Assembly: GCA_965112155.1 (NCBI GenBank)
Contig: OZ218099.1
DNA length: 64,000 nt
Direction: 5' to 3' (one strand)
From: Podarcis liolepis
Taxonomy: Eukaryota
The first letter of the stretch is position 1. Each line of letters begins with the position of its first letter. Of the stretch, positions 5,263-57,238 are shown piece by piece. The notes under the pieces were generated by a model. That model did not search any database. It had not been told where the DNA came from and saw nothing but the letters and a program-made list of their open reading frames with translations. A program made the position numbers and the translations under genes.

Positions 5263-8200
5263 CTCTATGCCATCTTACTTAGATGGAAGTCCTGTTGCAT
5301 TCACAGGGGCTTGCTCCCAGATAAGTGTGTGCAGGATTGCAGCCTTAGTGAGCTAACACTTTTAAGCCACGGATGTCGGTTGAGCCGTGCCAAGCCGTGC
5401 CAGCTGAGGTTCTTGCCCTTAATGTCAGAGCCAGAGGATTACGCGGCGTTAATGTCAGAGCTGGGATTGGAATCCAGGAATTACAGGAGCTCAGGCCGCT
5501 AGACAGCTTCCCTCAGCTTTACAGAAGGACTTTCATGCTGAGGGAAATGTCCACGTCTATCCGATTTACTAGCAAATCTATTGGCTTTCCTCATGGTTGT
5601 TGCTGTTTCCCTCTCCCCACCATAATTTGCCTCGCAGTGTGTTATTTGCTAATGAACATGGCTATTTGTGTCTCAAAAGAGGGCTGGTTGCCTCTTTATT
5701 CACCCAATCCTCTTAGGGAACTCTGCGGTGGAAGTCACATGATCACACACGGCAGCATAAGGTTAGCATGAGTTGGCAAGAATGCAGCCCCTGGCATTCA
5801 TGAAAACACTCAAAACAAAGGCACAAGGTTCTCTGCCTGCCCGGCAAAACAGAGTAGCTAAACTTTGGCCTTCTGGATGTGGTTGGACTCCAAGTCCCAT
5901 CAGCCCCTGCCTGGGAAATGAGCTGGAATTTATTCAATTTATTTAAAGAATTTTTTTTTTTTTTTAAGGATTACTGGGCAAATTACAAGTCCCTGCCCTC
6001 AGGTTCCTGATCTAAATAGATGTCACCCAAAAGGAAAGTGGATTGTGAGGGAGGAGGGATGGCAGGAGTTGGAGTCTAACAATGTCCGCAGGGCCACCCT
6101 GGTCAGGAGGGACACTGCTAGGGTGTCTGGGGTGTGCAGCCTAGCTCCTGCATTCAGGCTGACCATTTCTGCAGTCTTGCTCTGAAGTGGCCTTCTTGTA
6201 ATCTGGCCACATGCCCAGAGAAGAAATCTGGGAAGGCAATTCTTACCCTCTCACAGACAGAAAACAAGTGCAGAGGAAGGGGTAGCCTTGAGGGGGCGCT
6301 CAGCTAAGTGCCATCTGGTGGGCCTGCACCAACTTTAATGACCCCCTGGCTGCAGCAGCAAGCCTTGGATGCCTCGGTTGCAGCAGCAGCAACAGGAGCA
6401 CCCTGGAGTAGCATTGGGCGCCATGTGTGCCATTAGAATTTGCATCTGGGGATTAGCAGGGAGGATTATTGGTGGAGAAAAGGACCACCTGGAACTCCCG
6501 TCTCTGTGCCAGACAACCTAATCTAGAACCTGTGGATTTGAAGGCTTGGAGGGAATTATGTGCCTGGCTCACTCAGGTTGAATAGAGGGCAGGAGTTGCC
6601 TTGCTCTGGTTTCACGGAGGGCAAGGGACACTTCCTGATGTTAGGCCTGAGCACACATCAGAGGCTGTCTTATGCCAAGCTGGGCTACTGGTCCAACTGG
6701 TTCAGCACTGCCTGTCTCGGCTGGCAACCCCTCTCCAAGTCCTGGCTCTAGCACCTGCTTTAGTGCCCTTTTTAACCGAAGACTCAAAGCATGAGGAGCC
6801 TGAAACCTCCACAGTATAACAGCTGCTTCACAATTCACTTTTTATTTTTTTACTTTTAAGAGTACACAAAATATTTTTACAGCAGGGATCCTCGGATGTT
6901 TCACCTGGGCAGATTTGTGTGTCGGGCAGAACAGGTGAGCATCTTGTGGCAAATAAACAATTACTTAAGGCTTAAGCAATTAAAGGCTTTATCCACCTGC
7001 AGAGGCAGGGCAGGCCCAAAATCTTTTGCTGCCCGAGGCAAAGATCTTTTCAGTTGAGATCTTTCTCACTCTGTGTCTGTATCAGAATTGTTTTTTTAAG
7101 ATGCTGTTTGTGGCCCTGGGCGCTCCTTCAAGGGGAAGGGCGGGATATAAATTTATTTAATCAACAAATTACGAACATGTTGGTGCCTCTTGTCTTCCCA
7201 CTTACAAAAAGCTGACCGGACTAGCTGTTGAAATCTTACTTTGGCACTGTAAACAGGGTGGTCCACAGCTTGGCTGAGCTTAGCGGAGACTCCATTGCAT
7301 ACACAGAGCTGTACAACTTCCTTGTTTGCCTGCTCCACCCCAACATCTGCCTGAGGCGCAGGCCCTAAGCACTGAAAATATGTTGCCCCCCCCCATTCAA
7401 AATATAAACAACAATAAACCATAAAATAAGTTTTTATTTTTGAAAATGAAACAAAACCTACAGTAAGATGGAAAGTGATGTTTATTTTTGTATACTTTCA
7501 CTTTATTTATATTTTTTTGGGGAAATCTCCTTTATTTTCTAAATGCCAAGTCTTTGATCAAACCCTCAGAACTAATCTTACATAGCGCACCTATTTCTGT
7601 ACTTAGTAGAGATAAGGCATCCAGCCTGCCTTGTTGCATAGTTGTTCTGTTGGGAGTTTTAATCAACTTCAACTGAGAAAATGAACGCTCAGCTGAGCAA
7701 TTTGTGGCCACTGATGTTAAAAACCCGGCAATGGAAAATTTCTGTGTTGCCGTCCTTCCCTTGATACCCTAAGCACGTGCTTATTTTGCTGAATGGTTAA
7801 TCCTGCCCTGCTGAGACAGCTGCCTCATTCTGCCCAATGGCAGGGCCAGCCCTGCTCAGAGGAGGCTGCTGACTCCATCTCTGTATGATTTGCTGTTCTG
7901 GCCCGGCCTCCTTCCAAACTCTCTGCTGCGGGCAGGCTTTCTGCCATGCCTCAGCCTTCTTGCTAAAAGTGAATCAGCATCATTGAGCAAAAATATGAGA
8001 CAACACTTCAGTAGGGTAGGAAGATATTCCAGATACTCAAAACCCTCCAACGGAACATTTTCTCACAGAACATACTCGTTTCTGTGTTGACTTTTTTTTC
8101 CATGTTGGCTTCAGCTTGATATTTATGAGGCGGAGTTCCCTACTTAGCAGAACATTTCCTCCATTATACTTTGAAGCACGTTCGCTCTCCCGTTTGAAGT

Positions 8201-10780
8201 GTGTCCAAAGCTCTGGCGCTAAGATCAGCGGGTGCGTTCTGTCCATGGATCATAAGCAATCTGCTGTACAAGTTCAAATCCCATGAGCCCCGCACACCTA
8301 AAAAACAATGGCCTCCTGCCGCAAATAATCTGCCCTGAAAAATATCCAAGCATATAACAGGCTTCTATCATTCCAGCTGGAAACCCTGTAAAGAGCTGCT
8401 GTGCTTTAACCCCTGGGAGCATTTCTTCAGGGGGAAATGTACAGACTAGTGAGTTCAATAATAGGTAATGACAGGACAGAACTGTTTCTATTAGAAAGCT
8501 TTATCTTTCCACTCCTAGCCCAAATAGTTGTGCCGAGGGACTTTCCAGCTTCTCGTGCTTTCATATCTGTTTCCTTAGTCTGTCTGGGACATGGCTCATT
8601 CTGAAACAAAACAAAAGTTGTTCTGCTGTGAATGAGCAGTTCCCCCACCCTCCCTAGTGATAAGCCAGTCTGCTCAGCAGCAAATCCACGTCTCTGCCGC
8701 ATTCATTATGAAATAGAAATAGGGGCTTTGATCCTAAGCTATGTCAGCTGAGGGAAGTTCAGGAAAGGAAAGCTTCCCACACCTCTTTCCTGCCCTCTTG
8801 CGTGCCCAGAAAAAAATTCCCTCAGGTGGGGCCCTTTATTTAAAATGTGGGATGGGAAGAGCAGGGCCTGGTTGACCCCCTCCAATGGCACAGGTTGACC
8901 ATGCATGTCCACTCTGGCATGGCTGCTCTGGCAAGGGCACAAGGGATGGGGGAACCAATATGTCTCCTTGCCAAAGGTCAAGGGACGGTGAAGTGGGCAG
9001 CAATACAGCTCCTTGCAAGGGCAGCTAGGTACTCCTCTGAGGAAGAGATGTTCCATGAACTTCCTTAAGGCTATAGTCCTACATGTGCTTACCTGGAAGT
9101 AAAGACAGTTCAACTCAAAGGGCCTTAATTCTGCGTAGACACACATAGGCTCTTATTGTTAACTTCGTTTAGTATCCAAGACAAGACATCCACATTGCTC
9201 TGTTGACAGTGTTCAGCACTGCAATTAGTGCCGCCTTCTACTTTTATTAATTGCAATTTAATTGCAATTTAATCTGAAAGGCTAATTTCAGTTGATATCA
9301 GCTGGTTGCCGGCATTCTCCATGTGTCAGTGACCCGCTCCTTCTTATGCCCTTGTTCATTTGTTTCCCTTAGGACCTTTCCAGTTGATTCATTTAAAGGA
9401 AGACTGCAATGTTCAATCGGGCAAACTGTAAATTAAGTGGCTAAAGCTTTAGTTGATTAACAGGGTGGGTCAATTTTAATTGGCAGGACTTGTTTGTTTA
9501 ATATTTTTTCAAGGCTGTTTCGGTTCTGGTATGCTACTGTAAAAGGAAGTGAGCTGGATAATATAAATATGGCATTTCCTCCGAATGGCATGTGATTTTA
9601 TTTTTTGTTTATTAAGTTGAAAGCAATCTCACACATGCTTCAATACGTCTAAAAGGCATTCAGAAGAAATGGGAAGCAGGGCTTCTCCAATGGCTCTGCT
9701 GAATAATCAGCTCCAATGGGCTTTCCCTCCCTCACCTGTCACCTGGAAGCATTTATTCCATCTGAGAAGGGAAGAAAGGCCTCTCTGTAGATGAGATCAA
9801 TTCCATCTGGCTGCTCCTCCTGCTAACCGGTCCTGCTGGTCATTATAAAATACTACTATGCCCTCCACCAAGATGTTGCCTAAAACCAGGGCACTGCTTC
9901 CTGGGACACACTCCTGCATGAGTCATGTGACCCATGCAAGATCGTAGCCTCCCCTCCCCCCAAAAGCGCTTTTTTGCAAGCAAGATCGCAGCCCAAGATC
10001 GTGGCACCCAAAATGGCCACCATACTCTCATGGGGAAAAACTAGGATGTCCTGGTTTATCCGGAACAGTTGACAAATGTTGAATGAATTTGCTGTTTTCC
10101 TATTCCTTCCTTATCACCCTTTCCTTTTCTAAAGCTGTGGTCAGTCATTGTCTTGTTTTTATTGCTCTTATGAAAGTTTCTCTGGGAGTAAAAATGATCG
10201 CATAATTAATTATTTTCAATTAAATACAATAAGGTTTATCATAATATGCAAATTTATTTAAGGTTAACCCATTCACTGTGTTAAAGGCATCAGCTAAATG
10301 AGATTTAATATCAGTTAAAGATGAGCTAATTGATTGGCAGCCCTAGTTTATAATAGGTGAGTGAAGAGCAACTCAAGCACCTCCTTCAGAGTGATAGCCC
10401 ACAAGCACTGTACTGCAGTGTGCTTAAGAGAGTTTGCAGAGGCAGCTTTGCTGATGCCTGTGTTACTTAATATCTGAGCTCATGTGATATGTTGGAACGT
10501 TCATAAACATTTTCAGAGCTGGGGAAATGAAAGAGAAAGCACAGAATATTCACAGGCCATTTTACAAGCTTCTCAGAAGTGAGAGACCACAATGCTTACA
10601 ATGTTTGTGCTGGTGTTTGCTATGGGAGGGGTTCAAAGCTTGATTTTCTGCCATTTAATTAGTTTCACAGAAGTCTCAAAAGGAGACGTGAATCCAAATT
10701 CTGGCTCGCCACCAACTCTCAGTCTGATCTACCCCACAAAGTTGTTGTGAGAATTAGTTGCTCTGGAAGTGGAACACAAA

Positions 10781-28312: not shown

Positions 28313-29130
28313 TTGGAGCGGGTTCACTGAAGCCCACTCAGATCCACGGCCCACACATTTCGGTGCTTCAAGCCTACACCCCCCACCGAAGCAAGGAAGG
28401 CGGCGAACACGTGTTTGAGAGCGGGCGCGCGCCCGGCTCAGCCAATGGGGGAGCTGCATTGGGGCGGCCGCTCCGCGCTGAGGCGACCGACGCCCGGCGG
28501 CAAACCGGGATTTCGCGACCGTTTGCGAAATGGCGCCCTCTTCTTCTTCTGTTTACCCCGCTCCCCTTTCTCTCTAACCTGGGATTGGGAAGTTGGGGGG
28601 GGGAGGCAGAAACCCTCCCGTTGTAGAGCATGGGGAGTCGAAATTATAGCGTCGGTGCGCCTCCTCACAGCCTGAGGAGGGGGAAAGAGGGAGGGAGGAA
28701 GCCCCCTTCTGCAGCGCCCTCACAACGGCAGTCTCGACGGTTAATCTGCCCCCCCCATCTTCCTGTCGAGCGCGCGCGCGCGCCGTTTCTCCTTTTCTCT
28801 CACCCGCCGGGGGGTGAGGGTGGATAGGGGGGAATAGGCGTAGGGGGGGAATAAAGGCGCGACTTTCCCGCCTCCTTGGCACACGCCCGGAGCTGCTGGG
28901 TCTCTTTCCCGGCCAGGCAGCTGCTCCCACCTCCTCCTCCCCGCGCCTGTGGCGGCCCTTCCCCGCCTCGCGCAGCCCTCCGGGCCGCCTGCCAGCCGAG
29001 CCTCCCCTCCTCCCTCTCCCCGCCCGCCCCCCCGTGTGTGTCGAAAGGGACTGACGGAAAGATGGCCCCTCCTTCCCGCTCCCCCCTCCTCCCTCTCCCC
29101 GCCTCCCCCGCCAAAGACGAGGCCGAGCTG

Positions 29131-29141
29131 GTGTTTTTCCA
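29131..29141 (-). promoter_or_regulatory. TonE/ORE (NFAT5/TonEBP) element
   Basis: Minus strand TGGAAAAACAC fits the TonE consensus TGGAAANNYNY and lies ~100-110 bp upstream of the TATA-predicted TSS. The mammalian taurine transporter is a known TonEBP target through a proximal TonE. Confidence 0.75.
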
Positions 29142-29212
29142 CTCAGCAGGATGGGTGATGCTCGGCGCTCGCTCATTAGACAACAGACACGAGAGGTCAG
29201 GAAGAAAGCGCT

Positions 29213-29218
29213 TATAAA
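29213..29218 (+). promoter_or_regulatory. TATA box
   Basis: CTTATAAATT embedded in GC-rich island sequence, oriented toward the SLC6A6 exons. Confidence 0.7.
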
Positions 29219-29242
29219 TTACCGTTTCCTCCCTCGCAGCCC

Positions 29243-29343
29243 TGTTAGTCCGCCTTGGCACTCTCCCCGGGACACACGGGACAGACCCACGGGCAGCTAA
29301 GGCGCTGGACAGATACCTGGTCAGAGGGGTGCCGCTGCTACAG
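29243..29343 (+). other. SLC6A6: Predicted non-coding exon 1 of SLC6A6 (TSS approximate)
   Basis: Starts ~30 bp after the TATA box, contains no ATG, and ends at a plausible donor CAG|GTACCC (29343/29344). Confidence 0.5.
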
Positions 29344-32300
29344 GTACCCGAGGCTCTTTTCCGAGGGATTTTTGATATAGATATATATTATTACATATAT
29401 ATTGGGAGAGCAAAGGCACACAGGGAAGGACCTAAGCCCATCCTTCGCGGCTCTGCTTTCTCTCTGTCGGTGGCTCCCTTTTCTTCCTTTCTTCCTCGCT
29501 CTCCTTCCCTCTCTTTTCCGCTCTCCCTCGTAGCGTTTAGGAACAAAGGGAGTCGGCATATGGATCGCCTCTTGTCATTTACTGGAAAACGGGGAGCTAC
29601 TCTGAAGAAAAGAAACACTTCTTCCTCTTTCTAAGGGGCATCCCTCAGCCAAGGTGGGAAGCAAGAAATCCTGGCATCAGGGGGTCGGGGATTTTTTTGG
29701 CCAGGTTTCACCGTAGGCTGAGAAGCCCACCCACCCACCTACCTTCCCTTATCCGACCCCCACCCCTTTCCCCCTTCCTTAGAGATTTGTATTTGTCCTT
29801 TGCTATTTACTTTTAGGATGCATTGCTTCTGTGCTTTTTTTTTTGAGAGCGAGCGAGTGAGCGAGCGCATGGCGGTTTTCCTTTTGTCTGGGGTCCCCCC
29901 CCCCCAATTAAAACGTGCATGCATGTGCACCTTTCTGGTTTGGCTGTATGGGGTCTCTCAGCAGTTACCTCTCTTCCCCGCCGCCGCCCTCCGACACCTT
30001 GTGTTAACTTTTAAATAACAGATAGCAGCTAAGTGGAATTGTCTGCTGGTGCGGCTAACGCTTTCCTCCTAGTTTTAGTGCGTTTTCTGCCTTTGTATGT
30101 GTGGTGAGCATGTGCTTGGCCCTCCTCACTCCCTTCCTCTTCTGTGCAGTGTGCGATTAAATTATATTTAAGCAGCGCTGTTCTCTGCTACTAAAAATCT
30201 ACCAGAAAAGGCAAGCGCTAGCATTGCTAAACGGGTGGTGTTAGTACATCTTTAACTGGACTGCAGTTGCCCTCTTGTGCACTCGTTCATTCATTTTTTG
30301 GGGGTTTGGAGTGGTGAAAGGAAAGGGATTGTGATACTCTTAGAAAGTTTGCTGGCAAGAACCGAATCTCCAGCACACTTCAGTGTCAATAAAGTGATTC
30401 TGGATTTCCACCGCTGTTCCTGGGATCAGAAGGCAGCACTAAGGTGATGAATATTCATCTGTGTGTGTGATCGTTTAACAAAAGGGAAGGATACAGACTT
30501 TTGAGGCAGCACCATCTAAATTTCCATATAAGAGCATGAGGAGGAAGGCACTTTGCATACGTGTAAGGATCAGCAGATGGCCAATTGAGGATATGCTTCT
30601 CTTTTTATACTGTTTTGTTTAGAGGAGAACAAAGTGTTCGTTACCTATACAACCTGTGCTTTACCAAGGTGAATGTCTGAACTAGACATTCTTATTACTG
30701 CTGCTGCCTAATACTGAATGCTTTTGGGAGAAAAGACCATTATCTTTCATACAGACCTTATTTCTAAGTATGCATTCTTTAAGCTTACTGTCTTTAGAGT
30801 TCTAAAAATAAGTAATATATACTGTGAAATGAAGAGCCAGGTGTGATGGTGAAGAAACAGAGCTGCCTGTTTTGAAATCTTGAACGTCCTTGCAGCTCTT
30901 CCCAATGTGGATATAGAGCTTTGCTTATTCTTTTTTAAACATTCATAGTGACTAATTTTTAACGGTATCAGGAAAGGCATTAAGAAAGTGTGCCAAGAAA
31001 AGTCAGTTGTGCTTAATGGGCTCTTTTGGTATCCACTGTACTTTCTTGTTCCTCTGTGTTAAAGACTGTCTTAAGGGTTGGGCTGAAAGAACCAAATAGG
31101 TTTGTCATGTTAACAGGCTATGTAATTTGGAGTTGCTGCTGGCTAAGATTTTGAAATCTCTTATTTTTTAAAAGGATATTTTGTTTTTAGTGAATGAGCT
31201 TATTAAAAATGTGGGGTTATTCATACACAGTGTTTGAGGGGAGGGAAATATAGCCCAGTCTAGGCCAGACCTCTGTGTCCTTGGCAAATGATTTTGTATG
31301 TCTAGATTTATATTTGAATAAGCAAATAATCTCTCTAGCACCATTTGACTTTGGAATGTGGTGGGAATATTTTCCTGGAAGACATTGCTTGGAAACTGAT
31401 CTTTTACAGTAGGGATAGATTTTACTTTGTACCGGAGATGAGCTAGTCATCTACTGTAATAACAATGTCATTTACTTAAGGCAAATGCTGAAGGTGAACG
31501 TACTGTTCAGAGGGGGAAATTATATGTTTGCTGTGGTGGTCTGTTTCTCTCTGTTTTCAATTTTACCTCTTTCTCCTTTAATCTTCCCAATATTGATCTC
31601 TCTTTTTTAAATCTGTCACTCCCTTTTGCTTTTCACGTCTCCCTCTGCCCTCCAGTCACCTTCTACCCTCTCCCCCAAGGTCTTTCATTTTCCTTTCCCA
31701 CTTTCCTCTGCACTAATCTCCTTATAGCACTGGCACCCAAGAATGACATAACCTTTGGCAGCCTGCAAAAGCAAGTGTGGCAAATAACATCCCATCCTGT
31801 AGGGGGCGGTATGTGAGATTGGACCAGCAAAGACATTGTTACAGAATGGTAATGGGTGGGGGGAATAGGTTGTTGCTTTCCCCCCTGGGCTATATCATAG
31901 ATGGGCTCCAGTATGCAAACTTAGACAGAATTATCTTCAGAAATCTCTTAATTGCATTGGATAGAACTGTGTAATTCCAGGATGAGGCCTATAGAATATT
32001 AGAGAATTAGTAAGTGAACAAATGGCCGGAAGTCTTGGTCTTTGAGCTGATCATAAAATGAGCAGCTTTGGTTAAAGAGATATAAGCAGGAGATTTTGGT
32101 GTAAAGCTGAAGCAACTCTCCGAAGGCTAATTTACAGTGGAGTAACTGAGTGCAATGTGATGATATCATTTAGGCATTTTTTTTTTTTGCCATGATGGAA
32201 TAAAATATCATTAGAATTTCTTCTGTTCCTCTTTTCTTATGGGAAGGGGAGAATGGACTGAGACATAAGAGTCTGATAACTGATTAATGGGGGAAATGAA

Positions 32301-38797: not shown

Positions 38798-40843
38798 GGG
38801 TGGGAACTACATAAGAATTGGGGCTGCTGGACGTGGATGTCTGCTCCCTCTAGCAGAGCCTCTTCTTACTCCTGTGTATAGTTAAGGTGATCTGTGATCA
38901 GAACATGTGCACAGATCATCCCATTCTGGATCAGTGTTTTGTTTTGCATATATTCTTACCAACTTTGTGAAGTGGGGTTCCTATTGTTTCAAATTTACAA
39001 AATAGTGGTTGAGAGAGCAAGCGATTTGGGCCAAACTAGAAATGCTGCTGTTAGTAGTAGTAGTTATTGTTGTTGTCGTAGTATTAGTAGCCAACAAACT
39101 CTGACTTGAATTTGCAGTTTGACAAAAGTGCTGGGTTTCATGTGAACAAGTAGGTAACTGCTATTGCCCTCATTTTAGAAATAGAAGTTGATGAAGAGTA
39201 ATCAGCACTGCAATCACAGGTACACTTACTAGAGAGTAAGTCCTTTCTCTCTCTTTGAACTACATGGGACTTACTTCAGAGTAAATATGCTTAGGATTGC
39301 ACTGTAAGAGATTTCTCCAAGGCCATAGAGCAAATCAGTGTACGAGCTCAGTATAAATTTTCCTGCTGCCATTCCTGTGCTGAAATACACTTTGTTTTTC
39401 TTGGATTATATAACATAATCCAAGTTAGTATTTGCAAAGTTGGCGTGTGCATATGTGCGTGTGGCCTCAGTATGTAGATATTGTAAGCTTTTTCTACGAT
39501 TTCTTGGCATTACTTGTTGACAGCCATGAATATAAGTATATATAGACAATTACCAGTCCCCTTCCCCTTCAAAGAACAGCAACAGGATGCAGTCAGTCTG
39601 CTGATCTATGTATCACAGGGCAGTTTGAGGTCTGGCAAACTATTTATTTACATGAAACAGTGACTCACCCAGGATGAATGAGCAAGAGTCTTAACCACTA
39701 GGTTGTGCTAGAGAGCCAGTCCCAGCAGCCATCAATGTTGTTTTGTGTAGTTGCATTATGCAACTCCTTTTACTAAATGTTCCCTTCCTCTGCATGAGCA
39801 TCATTCTCAGACCAAATGGAGCAGCAGGTTGCAGTAAAACAGTTTTATATTCTGCTCATGGACTGGGCTTACTTGCAAATTCTGGCTGGTTACTTACAAA
39901 GACGTTGTCTAAGCCCATAAGTTTGGGTACACCCACTAAGACTACACCCATGTACACATACCCTTCTAAATAGTAATAACCATGCCGTATCTCAAACTGC
40001 TTATGAGTTTCCCTTCAGTTTAACCATGCATCAAGAGGGCTGCTGTTTGCGAAACACAGGACTAAAGAACCCCTTGGACACATTATACTAGCTGCACAGT
40101 TCTTTTGAAAATTTGCCTCTGTGTTCAAAAACATAATTAAATTTGTAAATTTAATAAAGGTAAGGATTCACTTAGGTTTAAGTTTTTTGCTTTTGTTTTG
40201 ATGGAGCAGAATCTGCTTTGGAGAGGAAAATTGTTGCATTCCTTTGTAGTATGGAGTCTGTTTTATATGACATTCTCTGTGCACACTGTCCGTAACTCAG
40301 TGGCAAACTCAGGAATGTTAGCCCTGGGTAAAGGTCTAATAAAACAATGGGTTTTTGGTTTTTTTTAAGTAAGTATTTAGCTATAGTGCTGCCCTATGTT
40401 TGCATAACAATGGGTTCATGTAGCTAAAAGCTATGGTAACAAATGTTCTTATGCGGCTGAAGTACTAGTTGAGCTAGAATAAAAAGCAGCTTGTGCAGCA
40501 CACTCTCCATAGGTAATCATTTATGTGCTGAGTACCTCCATTTGTAGAGGCAAATTTGATTGCAAACATCTTTTGCCTTCAAGCCATGGCCTTGTTTTGC
40601 ATGATAAACTAGCAGTGCATTCAGATTTAAGGGAACATTGCAAAATATTGCGATGAGGAAAATGGAAGAATTTCCTCCTTTCTGCCTTAATTCTCAACAG
40701 ATGTGGGTATAGGTTTTGAAGATTTCCCTCCTTGCCTCCTCCTCTTGGGATGTATGAGATGCCTGCCAGCCACACCATAGGCTAGTCTTTGCCAACTTAG
40801 TACCCTCCAGCGGTGAGAGGAGTTGTAGGTGAACATCTGACCA

Positions 40844-40887
40844 TTGGTGTCTGAAGAAGTGTGCATGCACACGAAAGCTCATACCAA
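40844..40887 (+). ncRNA. Minimal type I hammerhead ribozyme motif
   Basis: Helix I UUGGUGU/AUACCAA; core CUGAAGA (40851-40857) plus an extra A; helix II GUGUG-CAUG-CACAC; GAAA (40873-40876); vestigial palindromic helix III AGCU; predicted cleavage after CUC at 40880. Confidence 0.7.
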
Positions 40888-40940
40888 GAACTAACTTAGT
40901 TGGTCTTTAAGGTGCTACTGGAAGGAATTTTTTTATTTTG
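40850..40940 (+). mobile_element. 91-bp Penelope-like retroelement fragment
   Basis: Flanked by a perfect 17-bp direct repeat ACATCTGACCATTGGTG (40833-40849 and 40941-40957). Contains a hammerhead motif and TTAGTTGGTCTTTAAGGTGCTACTGGA, resembling reptile Penelope terminal repeats. Confidence 0.75.
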
Positions 40941-43690
40941 ACATCTGACCATTGGTGATTCTTGCCGGAGCTGAGGGGATTTGGAGTGCCAACACCATAA
41001 GGAGGACACCAGGTTGGGGAAGGCTGCCAAAGGCAGGCCATCCCAGGCCATGGTTAGCCAATTAGAGAAATGGACGATAGAACCCCATTTTGTGTGTTTT
41101 TCCTAGTACAGTACAGTGGCACACAGTCCATTTGCACATTTCATCCTCTGCAATACAACATGCAAAGGTCCCAACAGATGCCATTTAATAAGATGTTTCT
41201 CCATGGGAGCAGTGTTTAAAGTGCTCACTGTCATTATTGCCACCTCACGATCCAGCATCTTCTGCGCCTGTTAAGCCTGATAGCAGTAATATTAATGGTA
41301 GCTGAGTGCAGGGACTTTGGTGAGTGGTTAGGGGTAAAATGGTGCTGTCCAGAGAAAATTAAAGTTTACTTGTAGGAATGGGAGAACTGGGATCTACTAG
41401 CTTCTTGGAGGAAACTCCCAGCCTAGACAGGCAAACCCATCAAATGAGCATAACATAGAAACTCAGTCCCCTTGGCCTCATTGGATGTCATAATTGGCCA
41501 GCTCAGTAAGGTGCAGGGCCTCTCTGGATGGTTAGCATGATAGAGAGACAGAGTTTCTAAACAATTAAACCATCACCGTTCCTATTTTCAAATGAGGGTT
41601 AGCTGCATGTGCATGTGCTGGACAGCAGAACTAGTGAAGGGAAAGGGTCAGACTGGATGCCTACATACCACTGAGGTATGCAGGGAAATTGTGGGTCTTG
41701 TGTTTTTAAATGGCCTACTACACACATGCCTTCCCAGTAACCCTCAAAAACAGGCTGAAGACAGTGGTTTCACATGCTCATTGCCCTCCAGCTACCTTGA
41801 AATGTTAACAACATAGAGCAGCACCCACACATGAGTTCTTGGCCCCTGGAGTTGGGAGGTAGGCTAAAGGCCAGTCTGGTGTGTCTTTTCTGTGCCCATT
41901 GCTGGATTGGGAAAAGGAATTGGCTTTGGAGAATACTCTGTTCTGATTAGTACATTCCTTGGGCTCAATTTGCTCTCTGCAAAGGCCATTTAACCTGCAA
42001 AATGTAATGCTTCCTCACTGTGTAAAGCTGGGGGCAGAGGAGGCATTAGCTCCAAACTTTCCCCTCCTTCAAGTTCTTTAAAAAGCAAGGAGGAATGCCA
42101 TGTTGTGCTTCAGAGGACAAGAGAAAGGAAAAACAGGTGTCCATTCTCCAAGCCCAGTTCCTCTACAGCCCTCTGCTTGAGCAGGGCATTTTTCTCCTTT
42201 TTCCCCTTGCCCTTTTCCTTCTCACTCTGTGAATATCTTTCACACATCTACATGTAGAAAAGGAATGGGATATAACAACAAAAAAGGAGATAAATACACA
42301 GACTGCAAAAAGTGCCATGGGTCTTGATTTGTACACATATGTATCATATGTGTACAAACCTGGGTGTGCATATAATATATAACAGTGTGCCCCTTTATTA
42401 CCTGCTTAGACATGTATCAGTAAAGTGAAACTGGAAGTCTTGATGCTTCCTTTTCTGCATATCCAGATAACCTGTGAAGACTCTTCTTCATATACATCTT
42501 TCTATACGTTTATTTTTGCTCATAATCTCTATAGTGTTTCTGGCTTAGTGCTTTGGCTTTTTGGACTGCTGCAGCATGAATTTTTAAATGGGAGTTAAAT
42601 GCTCTCATGAGAGTTAAAACAGGCACATTGTCAAATACTAGATTTGTTAAAATGTACAGTAATTTTGGAACGGTATCCTCTTCTTAGTTAAGATACTTTT
42701 TCCTTTTTTAAACTTGACATTTAACAAAATTAAATCCTCTGCAGCAGTGTTAATTTTGAGGGAGCAGTGTATAGCCCTTAAGTATAAATACTTCTTAAGG
42801 CAGTTGTGCTCAAGTATTTCAGAGATGGTGGAATGATCTGAGCCTTTTCAGACAGAAATGCATTCTCAGAGATGGTCTTTGTCATGATCTAGGATTGTTT
42901 TTTGAAGCAGGTCATTTCTTAGTATGGAAAGTGGATTGCTCATAGCTATCGCCAGTCTCATTTGTAACTGTAATGCTAAGAAGGAACCATCTTACTGTAA
43001 TCATTTTGCGTCAAATACTACCATCATTCATTACTTTCTATCAGTGCCTCACCCTATGGAGGAACCAGCACTGCCCATCCGCATTGAGGAGGGGACAGAA
43101 GTTCCAACGGGTGAGTGCAGCTAAGGTGGGATGCTTGTGAAATGGGGGGGAGGCATGTTTGTACATGGAGCTTGATGCCTCGTTTGTGTTTATCCATATG
43201 TCACTGAGAGTTCTAGGAATGTTATATGCAAACATTTACAACATTTTTTGTCCCCCCCCCCAAATGTGCTATGTTGGCAGTGCCAGCCCTCAGATGATCT
43301 ACAGAAAAGTTGCACCATTTCCAGTCACCCACTATGCTTCTGCCACATCCCATCATTACATCCGGACTTTGCAGCTCTCATAATTTTATTGCCAGTCTAA
43401 GGGGTGTGGACATTTATAACTATTCAGCTTGCAAAGAATGAGGTGCACTCCAGAGTATGTGGCCCCATTGATAGGAATGTCGCCCTGGATTGCTCACAAT
43501 ATTTTACAAATATTCCGGTAGATGACATAGTTTTCTTCCTTTAATTTTGAATAATTGCTCTTTATTCTGTCTTTTCTGAGAAATTGTCTGTCATAATGAA
43601 CATATGTAGGGGAACATAGGAAGATAATAAAACCGACAAATGCTTAAAGCAGAAAAATGTTACTTACCTGTTACAGAAGGCACACATATA

Positions 43691-43859
43691 CCATATTTTT
43701 CGCTCTATAACACGCACCCGACCATAACACGCACGTAGTTTCTAGAGGAGGAAAATCCGTAGGCATGCCACCCGTAGGCATTCCCTCCATAACACGCACA
43801 GACATTTCCCCTTACTTTTTAGGAGGAAAAAAGTGAGTGTTATGGTGCAAAAAATACGG
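43691..43859. mobile_element. Tc1/mariner-superfamily MITE with CCGTA-type TIRs (169 bp)
   Basis: TA|CCATATTTTTCGCTCTATAACAC ... GTGTTATGGTGCAAAAAATACGG|TA; internal repeats ATAACACGCAC (3 copies) and CCGTAGGCAT (2 copies). Confidence 0.85.
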
Positions 43860-45965
43860 TAATTCCTCTACTCGAGGGGAGAATAATTCACCCAGAATAA
43901 GTTACTGTTACAGCATTTCAGATTAGATTTATTGGGCAACATACATAATGGAAATTTGCTTGTGCAACAGGACTAACACTTTCTTTTCTCTTTTCCACCC
44001 TGCAGCCCCCCCACCCCCAAAATCTGCTCCAGAAGATTCCCCCAACACACCAGAGCAGATACTGGGGCCATTTGTGGGGGGAGGCTGCAGGGGAGAGGAG
44101 AGAGGAAGGGAAAGCTTTGTTGTGCAAGCTGACACTCACTGCATTGAATCTCTCCCTTTTGTTTAAAATCTGGGTTCACCTCATTGGAGTCAGATAAGGA
44201 TACTATCAAAATGAGGAATGCTTTATTCTGAATTTTGATTGAAAGCACGTTTGACTTCCTTAAAAAGCAGCACAAAATCCATGTTTATTGAAAACTGCTG
44301 TCATCCCCCAATCACTCATGCTTTGTCTTATTTCCCTGTTCTGCAAGCAAACTGGAAAAATATGCATTTAATTTTATTTTTTAAAGTCTCATTTTCTGTT
44401 GTTTTGCTTTTGTAAAGATGTTGCCATAGCAAACTTCATTCACATCTCCATAGCATTATTATTATTATTAGTAGTAGTATGAAATTGCAAACATTTTCCA
44501 TTTGGTCATAGTTTCATTTTTCTGCCACAAGGTAAAAGAATAAAAATTCAAAATGCAAATTGCATACTAAAGGTTGAGTGACCATAACCATGGATATCCA
44601 TTAATTTTGTTCAGACTGGTTGCTTTGTACCCTCTTCAAATTAATGTTGTGGTTCTGCATGCTTCTGAAGTGCAAAAAGTGTGTGTGAGATTAACACAAA
44701 CTAAATATAAATAATGGTATTAAAAGCATTGTCTGAAATCAGTGGCAACTAATAGAAGAGATAAACAATTTCTTTCTTGCTTTATTTCACAGTAATTTTC
44801 AGTATAGGTTATTACCACTTCTTGGTAAGAATGTTCAGGGCAAGTAGGCTCCATGTACCATGACAGAGCCGGACAGTTCTTTTTCTTGATTCAGGAACTG
44901 ATTCCACATTCACTCAAGTGAAACTCCTAACTGAAGTCAAAATTAAAATCAGTGGCTTTGTTGCTGTTGTTGTCTATAGGTGAAAGTGTAGGTTAAGTTC
45001 TCTGTTTGCAAATTCTGCTTTGCAAAGCATGATATATAGAAGTGGGCTGCATGTTTCGGTTTCTTAGAGAAATGAAATGCTTATTTTAATCCTGATCTGA
45101 TTAGTCAACAGAAGGATTTGCAAAAAGCAACAGCGTAGCATTTTCTTGCATCTGATTGCCAAAGTTTTTGTTGGTAATATATATTGTGCTGAAAATAATT
45201 TTCTGATTTAAAATTGGATCTTCTATCACACATTCTTCAGGAAAACTGTTAAGAATTATACAGATGGCTAGTGACTTATATGACCCCAAGGTTATATGCA
45301 GAAGATTTGAAATTTGGAAATAATTGGTAGACCCATAAGTATAGTGAAATATATTCCTATTACAGAATCATTTTAACTATAAGAATAAATGTTTCCTAAT
45401 CTTAAATGCTTATAGACATAAAGGGCACCCCTATGCATGACTTCTAATTGGGACTTGCTCCTAGGTACATATGCATAGGATTTCAGATAAACAACACATA
45501 CACAGGTCCTAGGCTCCTCTACAACCAGCTTCCTTACTAATCCAGTGTTTCCATTCAGCTATCCATCCTTCCTACTCCCTTTTCCCAGGCTTGTGGAGAG
45601 TTTATAGTCTTGCCATCCCTTGGTCCCAAAGGATTTCCCTGGCTTCTTCCCATATAAAAAGGATTGAGAGATGCCAGTTGGCACACTTTCTGACTAGGGA
45701 GGGGAAGTTGTAGTGGAGTGTGTGCCTCAGGAAGTAGCGGCAGGTGCTCAGTTGGGGCAGTGGTCATATGTAACAGATGACTACTCCCTCACCACTTTGA
45801 GCATATCTGTGCCACAGTCATAAATTGTTGTTGGGCACCATGGCTTTAGCCAAGTGTTATCTTATTGATGCTGTGTTGGTGATCCCAGAAGTGCTTTTTC
45901 TAGGATTTATTTGGATACGGTTTAAGGTCATGCCAGAACCATTTCTAGTGTGCAATGCAGACATT

Positions 45966-49177: not shown

Positions 49178-49432
49178 CATGGGTAGGCAAACTAAGGCCC
49201 AGGGGCTGGATCCGGCCCAATCGCCTTCTAAATCCGGCCCGCAGACAGTCCGGGAATCAGCGAGTTTTTACATGAGTAGAATGTGTCCTTTTATTTAAGA
49301 TGCATTTCTGGGTTATTTGTGGGGCATAGGAATTCATTCATTCTCCCCCCCCCCCCCCAGTATAGTCCGTACCCTCACAAGGTCTGAGGGACAGTGGACC
49401 GGCCCCCTACTGAAAAAGTTTGCTGACCCCTG
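49178..49432 (-). mobile_element. hAT MITE family B copy 2, full length
   Basis: CATGGGTAGGCAAACT...AGTTTGCTGACCCCTG; perfect 8-bp TSD TGCTACAG (49170-49177 and 49433-49440). Confidence 0.9.
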
Positions 49433-50676
49433 TGCTACAGGAAAGTGCTACTTTAGGCAAGATAGGATGACTGTGCTATCTGCTACAGGAAAGTGCTACT
49501 TGCTCGTTTCTGCCTCTTACTCATTTATGAGCACTGTTCTGTTCCAGCATTATTAGCCAGTCAGATTATGGTGCCTGATCTTATAGTATAAGCCTTCATA
49601 GAACATCAAGCTGAAATGATGAGAACCTAGCTAAATAAAAAGAGTTGTTTCTTGTGCTTGTACTGGCTTAACTAAACCATCACACCTCCGTGAGATGATC
49701 ACACTGATCTCATTACTTCCCCTGCTTATATGTACAAAAGCATAGTGTGTTAATTATACAGATGAAAAGGGCAAGGGGTCTTACCCATGCCTAGATAATT
49801 TCAAATACTGGTGCAGTGTGCATTGCCATTTTGCTCATTAAGATGTAAGTTCTTTACATTTCCTCACAATTGAATATTTTTTAATCCTTTCCACTGCTTC
49901 TACACATACAAAGACATGAGACATTGTGATATAAGCAACTTTCACTCTAGGACTTTGCAGTTCATAGTACGCTTTGCTTGTACTTTGAAACATCCTCAGT
50001 TCATTGCAGAGCAGCACATAATGAAAAATAAAACAGATAAGCAGAAGGCAGTATAAATGGCATGTGGCAATCTGCTTGGAAGGTGCATTAAGATAAACGA
50101 GATAAGTAAAACTGAAGCATGTTCTTTCAAAATAGCAAAGCCCAGAAGTTTTTGCTGTTCATTATACAGTGGAAAGGAGTGAGTCCTCTAGTAATGTGTG
50201 TGCTTAGTAGTTAATGTTTTGTTTAAAATCTCTGGCTCCCAAAATTACTAGGAGGCAAAAGAAATTGCTGGCAGACCTAGAGACCACCCATCTTGGTTCT
50301 AGTGTGTGTTTTGATCACTGAGGTTTTGGATTACCAAATTATGTGAATGTGCCTTGGGGTCATGCGTGCCTCTCTCCCTGGTGCAGCTGCAAGGAAGCTT
50401 GAGCTTCCATTTTCAACTATCCTCAGTTCCATTTTTTAGTTGGCCACATTTCAGCGTTATGCCTGAAAGTAGATAAACCGGCTAGGCTTAGCTATGCTTT
50501 AACGAGACAAGCCAACCAAACCATGGTTTATGAAGCTGTGTTGTTTCACTCAACCAAATACCAATTCCAGTCTTGGTAGGAGTGGATGCCATTGCTTATG
50601 TAGCCAAAATGGTTCTATCCACTTACAAAAGGAAATAATCAGCAGGCTTGGGGGAACCTCATGGTTTGCAGAAATA

Positions 50677-50918
50677 CAGTGGTACCTCGGGTTACATACG
50701 CTTCGGGTTACATACGCTTCAGGTTACAGACTCCGCTAACCCAGAAATAGTACCTCGGGTTAAGAACTTTGCTTCAGGATGAGAACAGGAATCGTGTGAC
50801 GGTGGCGTGGCAGCAGTGGGAGGCCCTATTAGCTAAAGTGGTGTCTTGGGTTAAGAACAGTTTCAGGTTAAGAACGGACCTCTGGAACAAATTAAGTATG
50901 TAACCAGAGGTACCACTG
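50677..50918. mobile_element. Tc1/mariner MITE family A copy 3
   Basis: TA|CAGTGGTACCTCGGGTTACATAC ... GTATGTAACCAGAGGTACCACTG|TA, with an internal tandem CGGGTTACATACGCTT. Confidence 0.9.
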
Positions 50919-54813: not shown

Positions 54814-56364
54814 GGCATACTTTTTGCAATTTAACAGCTGACAGCAATATTTATAAGCCAGTGTGACCGTCTAGGGTTCACTTTGCTCTGGAGTTTTCAT
54901 AAAGCAAGCCTTGTCATTGGCTATTTCATTAACTAAAAAGCCATTGCTATGGCAAAGAACATGATTCTATTGCGTATCAGGAGTGAGTCAGTCCTATTTA
55001 TTTTGAAATCCAAGTGAGATGCTGAGATGGCAGTGAAATGAGGCGGGGGTGTATGCCGAAACTGAACTGAACAGAAAGGTTTATTTATGCAGGGGTTTTG
55101 CTGTTTAATCAGTACCAAGATATAAAAATAGAAGAAGAAAGAAACTGCTGCTTTAGATCCTTCCGCTCATTAGGATAAATCACTATGTTTAAAGCGAGGG
55201 GCGGGGGATCACTTTTAATAGAAGCTCCATGATAACTCTTCGTAAAGCCTTAATATTTCAGCCGATGATGATTCTGGGGAGAAATTACAGGCTTGGAATG
55301 GACACTGGTCAGTGCAAAGAAAAAGTAACGTGGTGATGTAATAGAGGGCAGATTTTCTACAGTGGTCCTCTCTCATTTACTAAGCTGATGTAAACATAAA
55401 GTCAGAGTGTGATCTGCTAGTTGCCCAAACAGGAGTTAAAGCCTGTTGATAATCTCTTCACAACTGTAGGTAAAGAGTACTTCAAAATCTGGGGTTGCAC
55501 ACCAGGAATGGCAAGGACGTCCAAGAGAATGCCCAGTGGGCTGGGTGTGTGCTTGGCATCTCCAATGCAGAATACACTGCTCTTTTCCTCCTTGCTTCTT
55601 TCCTTACTTCTTCCCTCCCTCCCTCCTTAACACCTTCACTATTTCGCCATTCATCCCCAGGGCACACACTTCTGCCCTCTCCCTAGAAACTCTACCTGTC
55701 CTCTTAATTTTTTTATGCACACATTACCTATTCTGCACTCTTATGCCTTAATCCACAGCCACTTTCCAAAGGAGCTTTAGGAAGAAGCCTGACAAGTGTT
55801 TGAGCCCCAGTCTGAAAGGTGGCTCTGAGAGGGAAAGGGAACAAAAGCATAGCAGTGTCAGTTCGCCTGTTTTTACAGGCCTGGCTCAGATGGACTTTCA
55901 CATCTCTTCTGTGCAAAAAAAGGATCCATTTTATTTCCTGCTGGCCTAAAAAGGTGTCGCAATACATGGCAATGCTGCTTTTGTTTTTAATACTCTGAGT
56001 AACAAAGATGCTTCCGCCTCTTCTCTAACACAAAGTATCTTACTAACACTGATTAGGATCCAAGGATTGTTTTTCTAGACTGCTCAGGAACCTGGAATGC
56101 TAACCTTCTATTGTGAAAAGACCCTTAATAGGTGTCAATGCGAAAGAGGCACAGGTGTATTTTAAACTCATTTGTGGGGTCAAGACAGGAATAACTGTCA
56201 GCTGCATCTTTCCTCTGCATATACTGGCTTGAAAAAGTGGGTGAATTTGAAGGAAACTTTTTGTTTGCCAAGGTGATTTGTAAGCACAGGTACCTATTTG
56301 TCTTCCAAGTAACGTGGATTATAAAACCTATATTGTATTTTCCTTCCTTTTAGAAAGCAAAAAC

Positions 56365-56593
56365 ATGGCAACAAAGGAGAAACTGCAGTGTCTAAAAGAT
56401 TTCCACAAGGACATTCTCAAACCTTCCCCTGGCAAGAGCCCTGGGACACGCCCTGAGGATGAGGCAGAGGGGAAGCCACCACAGCGTGAAAAGTGGGCCA
56501 GCAAGATTGACTTTCTGTTGTCTGTGGCTGGAGGATTTATTGGATTAGGCAATGTTTGGCGATTTCCGTATCTCTGCTACAAAAATGGCGGAG
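56365..56593 (+). CDS. SLC6A6: Na+/Cl- dependent taurine transporter, first coding exon (exon starts at 56354)
   Basis: [76 protein letters not shown] is the TauT N-terminus and TM1. Acceptor TTTTAG|56354; donor G|GTGAGT; 229 coding nt, phase 1. Confidence 0.98.
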
Positions 56594-57238
56594 GTGAGTA
56601 TTGTTGTCGCTTCCATAATGGTTTGGGATGTGGATAGCAGCTCCCTTTCATGTGAATGGGTATGTGGGGAAGCAGGGCTGCTCTGAAGATGAATGAGATC
56701 AAGATTTAAAAACAACCGAAAGTGCTATTGGACTAATAGCTACTTCTCAGCTTTTTTTTTTTTTTTTTTTTTTGCAAAGGGGAAATTTGATTCATATTAG
56801 CGAAAGCCAGTCACATATTTCCGGTATGCATTTCACTGCATTTAATTTGCTTTTAAAAAACTCTTACAGCTGTTACATGCAGTACACTTTGTAAACAGCA
56901 GGTCATTAAATTCTGAGACATTGTAAAACAAGAAAACAATTGCCTTGAGATTTTACCTAATCTTCCAGTATGCAATGAAAGGAAACCATTCTGTTGCACA
57001 TTTTCTTTCACATTGTTCCCCATTTCTTAATCTGAAAATAACAGGGCATTTGTGTAACATATTTAAAGTCTGATTATTAATCTTTGCTCTTAAGTGGCAA
57101 TTTCAGAACATGCTAACAAGGGCATGGGCCAGATTTCATAGTGATACTTAAATACCACCATCAGCTGCTACTCCATTAAGAAAATAAATCATTGAGTCAT
57201 AGAATCTTCCTAATCTTCCTTCTGTGTTTTCTCTACAG

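Follow-up and report, generated by a model that had tools for sequence, protein, structure and literature searches.

The 64,000-nucleotide stretch of Podarcis liolepis DNA analysed in this work (GenBank assembly GCA_965112155.1, contig OZ218099.1), here called the window, carries a 91-base insert with a hammerhead ribozyme motif 15.5 kb 5' of the start codon of the taurine transporter gene SLC6A6. It is highly probable that this insert is a young leader copy of a Penelope-like element (PLE), made by reverse transcription of a short leader RNA, that the completed helix I of its hammerhead is a by-product of junction formation, and that the effect on SLC6A6 is small. We lean, by a little, towards the wider proposal that PLEs make a complementary DNA (cDNA) resembling strong-stop cDNA, by priming in the leader, run-off from the capped RNA start, where the uncleaved hammerhead begins, and then a jump.

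The insert is enclosed by perfect 17-bp direct repeats 108 bases apart (Table 1), and its 3' junction has a two-base overlap, because AC (40941-40942) matches both the host repeat and the element. Positions in the family are numbered from the C of CUGAAGA (window 40851), which is +1; the preceding base is -1. The hammerhead core is composed of CTGAAGA (40851-40857), an extra A (40858), the five-base-pair stem II GTGTG/CACAC with loop CATG (40859-40872), GAAA (40873-40876), GC and TC (40879-40880), with the predicted cut after 40880. The 5' strand of helix I native to the element is GTAT, giving 4 bp; with host bases before it TTGGTGT pairs with ATACCAA over 7 bp, including one G-U, and this helix is present in the minimum-free-energy fold. 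A first-pass annotation made from the letters alone had described the duplication, the insert, the core, the host-paired helix I and the orientation in sense to SLC6A6, and all of these coordinates hold.

The sequence features also fit the minimal type I hammerhead with a palindromic AGCU that had been recognised there: the catalytic core, the extra base after A9, G10.1-C11.1, the palindrome at positions 15.2/16.2 and a native helix I of 4-5 bp are all found. The canonical form is not; helix III has no loop and Rfam scans of the insert, the covariance-model check that had been suggested, returned no hammerhead match even at E<=10, as expected for the minimal form, for which Rfam lacks a matching model. 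The fold energy of the insert is unremarkable, since z against shuffled sequences is only -0.55 to -1.5. A minimal-hammerhead descriptor finds a single site across the 64-kb window, which is the insert, and no further pieces of its element were found in the window. Two other readings were rejected, a retrozyme (the insert is a single copy, with no tandem units carrying complete hammerheads) and a chance repeat.

The 35-base core of the insert has 11,579 exact copies in the 1.57-Gb genome, against none for a reversed-pattern control, and the letters of the insert are those of most sampled copies; the family is estimated at about 13,000 copies in all. In longer copies the sequence continues upstream into the last part of a frame that encodes reverse transcriptase (RT) and GIY-YIG domains (RVT_1, E 3.7e-12; GIY-YIG, E 1.6e-5), which lies directly upstream of the pseudo-long terminal repeat (pLTR) and bears out the Penelope-like origin proposed earlier. 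At locus L275 tandem units spaced 2,905 bp apart carry an open RT/GIY-YIG frame of 910 amino acids, and between that pLTR and the insert the sole difference is a single T in a run of T's. The open reading frame (ORF) of the element has in-frame ATGs at +93 and +132. The parent ORF, as in endonuclease-bearing (EN+) PLEs, combines RT with a C-terminal GIY-YIG, and its linker before GIY-YIG is C-X4-C-X2-C, of the CX2-5CxxC type. Judged by sequence, the insert is the pLTR of a Neptune-type PLE, the same linker being shared by the Nematis clade. The open frame and near-identical tandem units of L275 (G000:C1:101120000-101129500; frame 5687-8419; part of the first unit is masked, and an inverted core is present) indicate that the family may still be active. 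Two long truncated copies, L212 (6392-7819) and L213 (1913-3592), have their breakpoints almost together within the RT domain, which may mark a second hot spot of truncation.

The ends of family copies were sampled with a 3' anchor followed, 150 bases on, by two arbitrary letters; from 819 and 969 anchor matches 200 were listed, 180 loci were fetched (C1 and the first part of C2) and 184 copies were scored. By flank, 118 have an inverted partner, 9 are in tandem and 57 are host-flanked, the last with a target-site duplication of 8-17 bp in 27 cases. The 3' ends fall into two groups, at about +83 to +97 and +120 to +131, of which the insert uses the first; 94 copies are tailless and 90 tailed. 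Partial tandems, inverted 5' copies and an optional 30-40 bp tail are again as in EN+ PLEs. The anatomy of the insert itself (short, tailless, host-flanked, duplication of at least 8 bp) is shared by 9 of the 184.

The 5' ends are concentrated at -7 to -1, where 79 of the 184 copies start (32 at -6 and 20 at -4), a rate of 11% per base against 0.6% downstream and 1.0% upstream, and the peak persists in host-flanked copies alone (33/57). The pile-up of truncations at helix I which the first-pass annotation had predicted is thus present, within seven bases. Only 4/184 copies start at the cleavage site (+30 to +32). Cleaved RNA is therefore not what usually serves as template, and that reading was rejected. 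Of 30 loci that contain the ORF start, inspected by eye, 13 (two of them one array) join an ORF fragment directly to a unit starting at -8 to -4 and four join elsewhere. A third class of copy end is seen in the tandem junctions of L246-L271, which restart at about +150 to +200, within the first 25 ORF codons. At L050, L110, L116, L131, L179 and L193 the 5' junctions are stuttered, with several short re-copies of the element start, and resemble repeat addition by a telomerase-like enzyme.

The first-pass annotation had attributed the 5' pile-up to homology with helix I. On the sequence evidence the start of the element's RNA is the likelier explanation and fits better, because of the spacing of a TATA box, the extra non-reference bases at the ends and the lack of a peak at the cleavage site. 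From its start at -37 the box is 31-33 bases ahead of the -6 and -4 peaks, which is the usual distance from a TATA box to an RNA start. In a tally of non-reference end bases over 243 copies (loci L001-L210), an extra G precedes the -4 end in 26/41 (31% expected) and an extra T the -6 end in 55/67 (39% expected). Among ten duplication-flanked GGTAT copies, a set selected for the G, that G is absent from the host copy in six. An extra G is the expected product of copying a cap, as in other retroelements.

Several observations count against an RNA start. The -6 class carries an extra T and not a cap G, which we could not explain by a single rule, and the T at -7 needs another cause, either slippage by two bases or addition of an untemplated A. 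That this T came from a second master copy was rejected, as the inspected T-bearing junctions do not run into promoter sequence. The G count is inflated, 9/26 coming from inverted partners that end in CAG, and among host-class -4 copies it is 8/13 by eye. Moreover the Penelope of D. virilis has a TATA-less internal promoter, so this promoter type is not general.

In the mechanism that we propose, the starting point is a family with an open RT and GIY-YIG frame and over 11,000 copies. Its two 3' end sites would be internal priming sites, as in vitro work on the element of the anole suggests. RNA would start at -6 and -4 under the TATA box, and the enzyme would run off the end of this template. 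Bearing a C copied from the cap, the end of the cDNA would then anneal to host GGTG and be extended, and repair would yield the 17-bp duplication. A lone copy would not close helix III and would not cut at a useful rate. Jumping to host DNA, to the opposite strand or to the ORF start, such a cDNA would give inserts, inverted copies and tandems, respectively. If true, this would explain the origin of pLTR tandems and inversions, with helix I marking their ends; the RNA start further predicts capped RNA ends at -6 and -4 along with run-off cDNAs about 90 and 125 bases long.

A pile-up at this place could also arise if RT stalled at the folded hammerhead on an RNA which does not end there. The peak does coincide with the 5' strand of helix I, and some ends, mostly of inverted copies, lie in stem II (+8 to +21). 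The enzyme would, however, reach the 3' strand of helix I (+34 to +31) first, and at +30 to +32 there are just the four starts given above; the native helix is weak (pairing probability P 0.17), and the peak, at TATA spacing, consists of two narrow positions where the ends carry extra bases. Stalling is therefore quite unlikely. The least probable of the alternatives is a splice acceptor, with copies made from spliced RNA. The upstream sequence is acceptor-like, with a pyrimidine tract and AG at -7/-6, and Cervera and de la Pena (2014, PMC4209133) place the end of the D. virilis Penelope intron at the 5' end of helix I. Yet the copy ends are not preceded by a constant upstream exon, the bias being confined to one base, AG is missing before the -4 class, and with the TATA box in place there is no space for an intron.

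An RNA start at this position bears directly on the host-completed helix I, which had been ascribed to microhomology between the host and the element's own helix I strand. A short microhomology is there, though the native strand is just GTAT, so that the two T's of the host have no counterpart in the element. The simplest account for this locus is that a cDNA end templated by cap-G-GTA annealed with host GGTG, forming three pairs plus a wobble, and that extension followed. The RNA start and the 5' strand of helix I being one and the same, a host end resembling that start also pairs with AUACC, and annealing alone therefore accounts for five of the seven pairs; the remaining two T's look accidental, with a probability of about 1 in 11. 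A short overlap of the duplication with the element start is common: among short host-flanked copies that have a duplication it is seen in 7 of 18. The length of helix I is 4 bp in 178/243 copies and at least 7 bp in 4/243. The completed helix is not special to the insert: 399 copies genome-wide have the same extension, TTGGT[A/G]T, before the core. By eye, 30 inspected extended copies comprise 19 inverted element junctions, 5 clear host duplications and 6 that are unclear or contain filler.

A further alternative, taken over from the first-pass annotation, is that homology to helix I made the junction and that the rebuilt hammerhead cuts SLC6A6 pre-mRNA co-transcriptionally, either alone, in a pair of nascent transcripts, or with copies or protein acting in trans. 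Some of the evidence speaks for it and hence against a mere by-product. The core is intact and in sense, and the extension raises the computed pairing probability of helix I from 0.17 to 0.91. TT precedes GGT[A/G]T about twofold too often, in 19% (399 of 2,130, a denominator estimated from a 6.25% subsample in which TT is found in 4/30) against a background of 8-9%; a part of the junctions, chiefly those joining element strands, is therefore shaped by helix I complementarity. Relative to two free monomers, and in terms of secondary structure only, the computed cost of a double hammerhead falls from +5.7 kcal/mol for a native pair to +4.1 for a mixed pair and +2.5 for two extended copies. The motif of the green anole cuts when its protein is added (PMC11167929). 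Dimer cleavage of PLE hammerheads is the subject of Lunse et al., as cited in PMC6765202.

On the other side, the claim of a rebuilt complete fold fails, since AGCU, a helix III without a loop, needs two copies and cannot form in a monomer; published single minimal hammerheads are inactive and dimers only weakly active (PMC4209133), and the anole motif required its protein (PMC11167929). In a mixed dimer it is the partner that is cut by the core containing the 7-bp helix, and what holds the SLC6A6 strand is the native 4-bp helix. The 14 bases of stem II and its loop make up a perfect palindrome, and the predicted 14-bp duplex of two copies is favoured over the double hammerhead by about 20 kcal/mol and would outcompete it; some family copies have a non-palindromic variant of the loop. 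The RNA-end peak anticipated at 40880/40881 is missing from run X23, as is any read-end peak in the whole stretch, a weak negative given random fragments and reads on the insert that come from other copies; a DNA run of the same organism lacks the insert. The allele is moreover young and one of 399 alike. Taken together, cleavage by a hammerhead rebuilt through helix I homology is very unlikely. Nothing found points to the latent cleavage site in SLC6A6 that had been suggested, and because the extension lowers the double-hammerhead cost that idea is weakened, no more than that. From the modelled structures latent cutting of the pre-mRNA appears unlikely, a pair of nascent SLC6A6 transcripts being the best remaining route, and the ribozyme motif is probably a harmless passenger and not a switch of the taurine transporter gene.

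The empty site that the first-pass annotation had proposed to look for appears to be present in contigs of two other samples, X3 and X5. In both the match ends at 40832 with exactly 84 letters remaining and resumes at 40986, 39 letters from the contig end, position 40986 being covered at the same depth. This pattern fits a skip over the insert and one repeat copy, from which we infer an empty site. The organism label of X3 is that of the sample best matching the stretch; X4 gives no clear reading. As the site appears empty in two other samples the insert is young and recent, perhaps polymorphic. Filled and empty alleles offer a natural test of whether an intronic minimal hammerhead ever cuts host RNA.

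SLC6A6 was identified by its first coding exon, which matches taurine-transporter chains at E 1e-48, the next family member giving 2e-15; its SNF exons are on the + strand. Near 29.2-29.3 kb a GT donor and a TATA-like element occur in a CpG-rich region; together with the acceptor at 56354 and thin + strand cover (0.2-1.6 over 38.5-43.2 kb in one stranded RNA run, X23) they suggest that the insert sits in an intron of the 5' untranslated region; no spliced reads across the insert were seen in that run. The CpG-rich stretch (28350-29500), with CCAAT-like and TATA-like elements and the donor near 29343, is the likely promoter and first exon of SLC6A6. Other high-copy repeats in the same intron lie at about 43770-43860, 49260-49430, 50670-50900 and 52780, and run X5 appears to be without the repeat at 43689-43859.

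Table 1. Features of the insert and of SLC6A6 in the window.
Feature	Position	Strand	Basis or remark
Predicted non-coding first exon of SLC6A6, CpG-rich, approximate start	29240..29343	+	suggested by sequence
Left copy of target-site duplication, host DNA	40833..40849	.	apparently single copy in X3 and X5 contigs
Helix I 5' strand, 7 bp	40844..40850	+	six host bases and first element base; native strand 4 bp
Host GGTG	40846..40849	+	putative microhomology, three pairs and terminal G-T wobble, to cDNA end of cap-G-GTAT RNA
91-bp insert, leader of Neptune-type Penelope-like pLTR (by sequence)	40850..40940	+	from one base before core to tailless 3' end
Minimal type I hammerhead core	40851..40880	+	sequence; features as in PMC4209133
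Helix I 3' strand, ATACCAA	40881..40887	+	sequence, fold
Right copy of duplication	40941..40957	.	first two bases, AC, also match element 3' end
First coding exon of SLC6A6, ATG 56365	56354..56595	+	similarity, acceptor 56354, RNA depth 27 (bin 56456-57100)

The closest known hammerheads are those of metazoan PLE pLTRs (PMC4209133), reported in their minimal form in turtle and snakes. They have the same type I motif with a short helix I, an extra base after A9, G10.1-C11.1, a palindromic 15.2/16.2 and no helix III loop, and their copies are likewise mostly dispersed, solo or on opposite strands. The insert differs in that its helix I is lengthened by host DNA, and the ends of solo copies are unmapped in the Results and Discussion of that paper. 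The Poseidon element PAc of the green anole (Frangieh et al. 2024, PMC11167929) likewise has two internal starts of reverse transcription which flank an optional tail, the outer one lying 111-118 bases past the point where stem II begins, close to +120 to +127 of the present family, and uncleaved RNA is its main template. It belongs to another clade, its ORF starts at stem II in place of the ATGs at +93 and +132, and a fixed 5' end at the RNA start is unreported in main-text parts 1-2 and supplement 1. No transcription-start or cap signature of a PLE was found in the papers searched, although Fig. S2 of that work maps genomic ends and may show a 5' pile-up.

The Neptune clade (Craig et al. 2021, PMC8557442) likewise has RT followed by a C-terminal GIY-YIG and the CX2-5CxxC linker, partial tandems, an inverted 5' copy and a one-sided 30-40 bp tail; the insert itself is without an ORF, and Nematis shares the linker. 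No published account on point of this element family in lizards or of intronic cleavage by such inserts, and no description of a family-wide end map, was found in the papers searched (most subscription papers and Repbase lay outside the search). In Adineta vaga, Penelope (Arkhipova et al. 2013, PMC3846280) likewise shows duplications, of 8-10 bp, microhomology at a 5' junction, TATA and initiator-like pLTR sequence and solo pLTRs; solo pLTRs without duplications were ascribed there to recombination or deletion, whereas the insert has a duplication of its own and an apparent empty site. The non-LTR retrozymes (bioRxiv 10.64898/2026.07.22.740005) are likewise non-coding, hammerhead-bearing and pLTR-derived, with monomers in introns, but their definition requires tandem repeats in which two or more hammerheads are complete, in distinction to a single leader copy of an autonomous element. 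The insert is thus an ordinary, young stub of an already known class, and the value of the present analysis lies in the family-wide map of ends.

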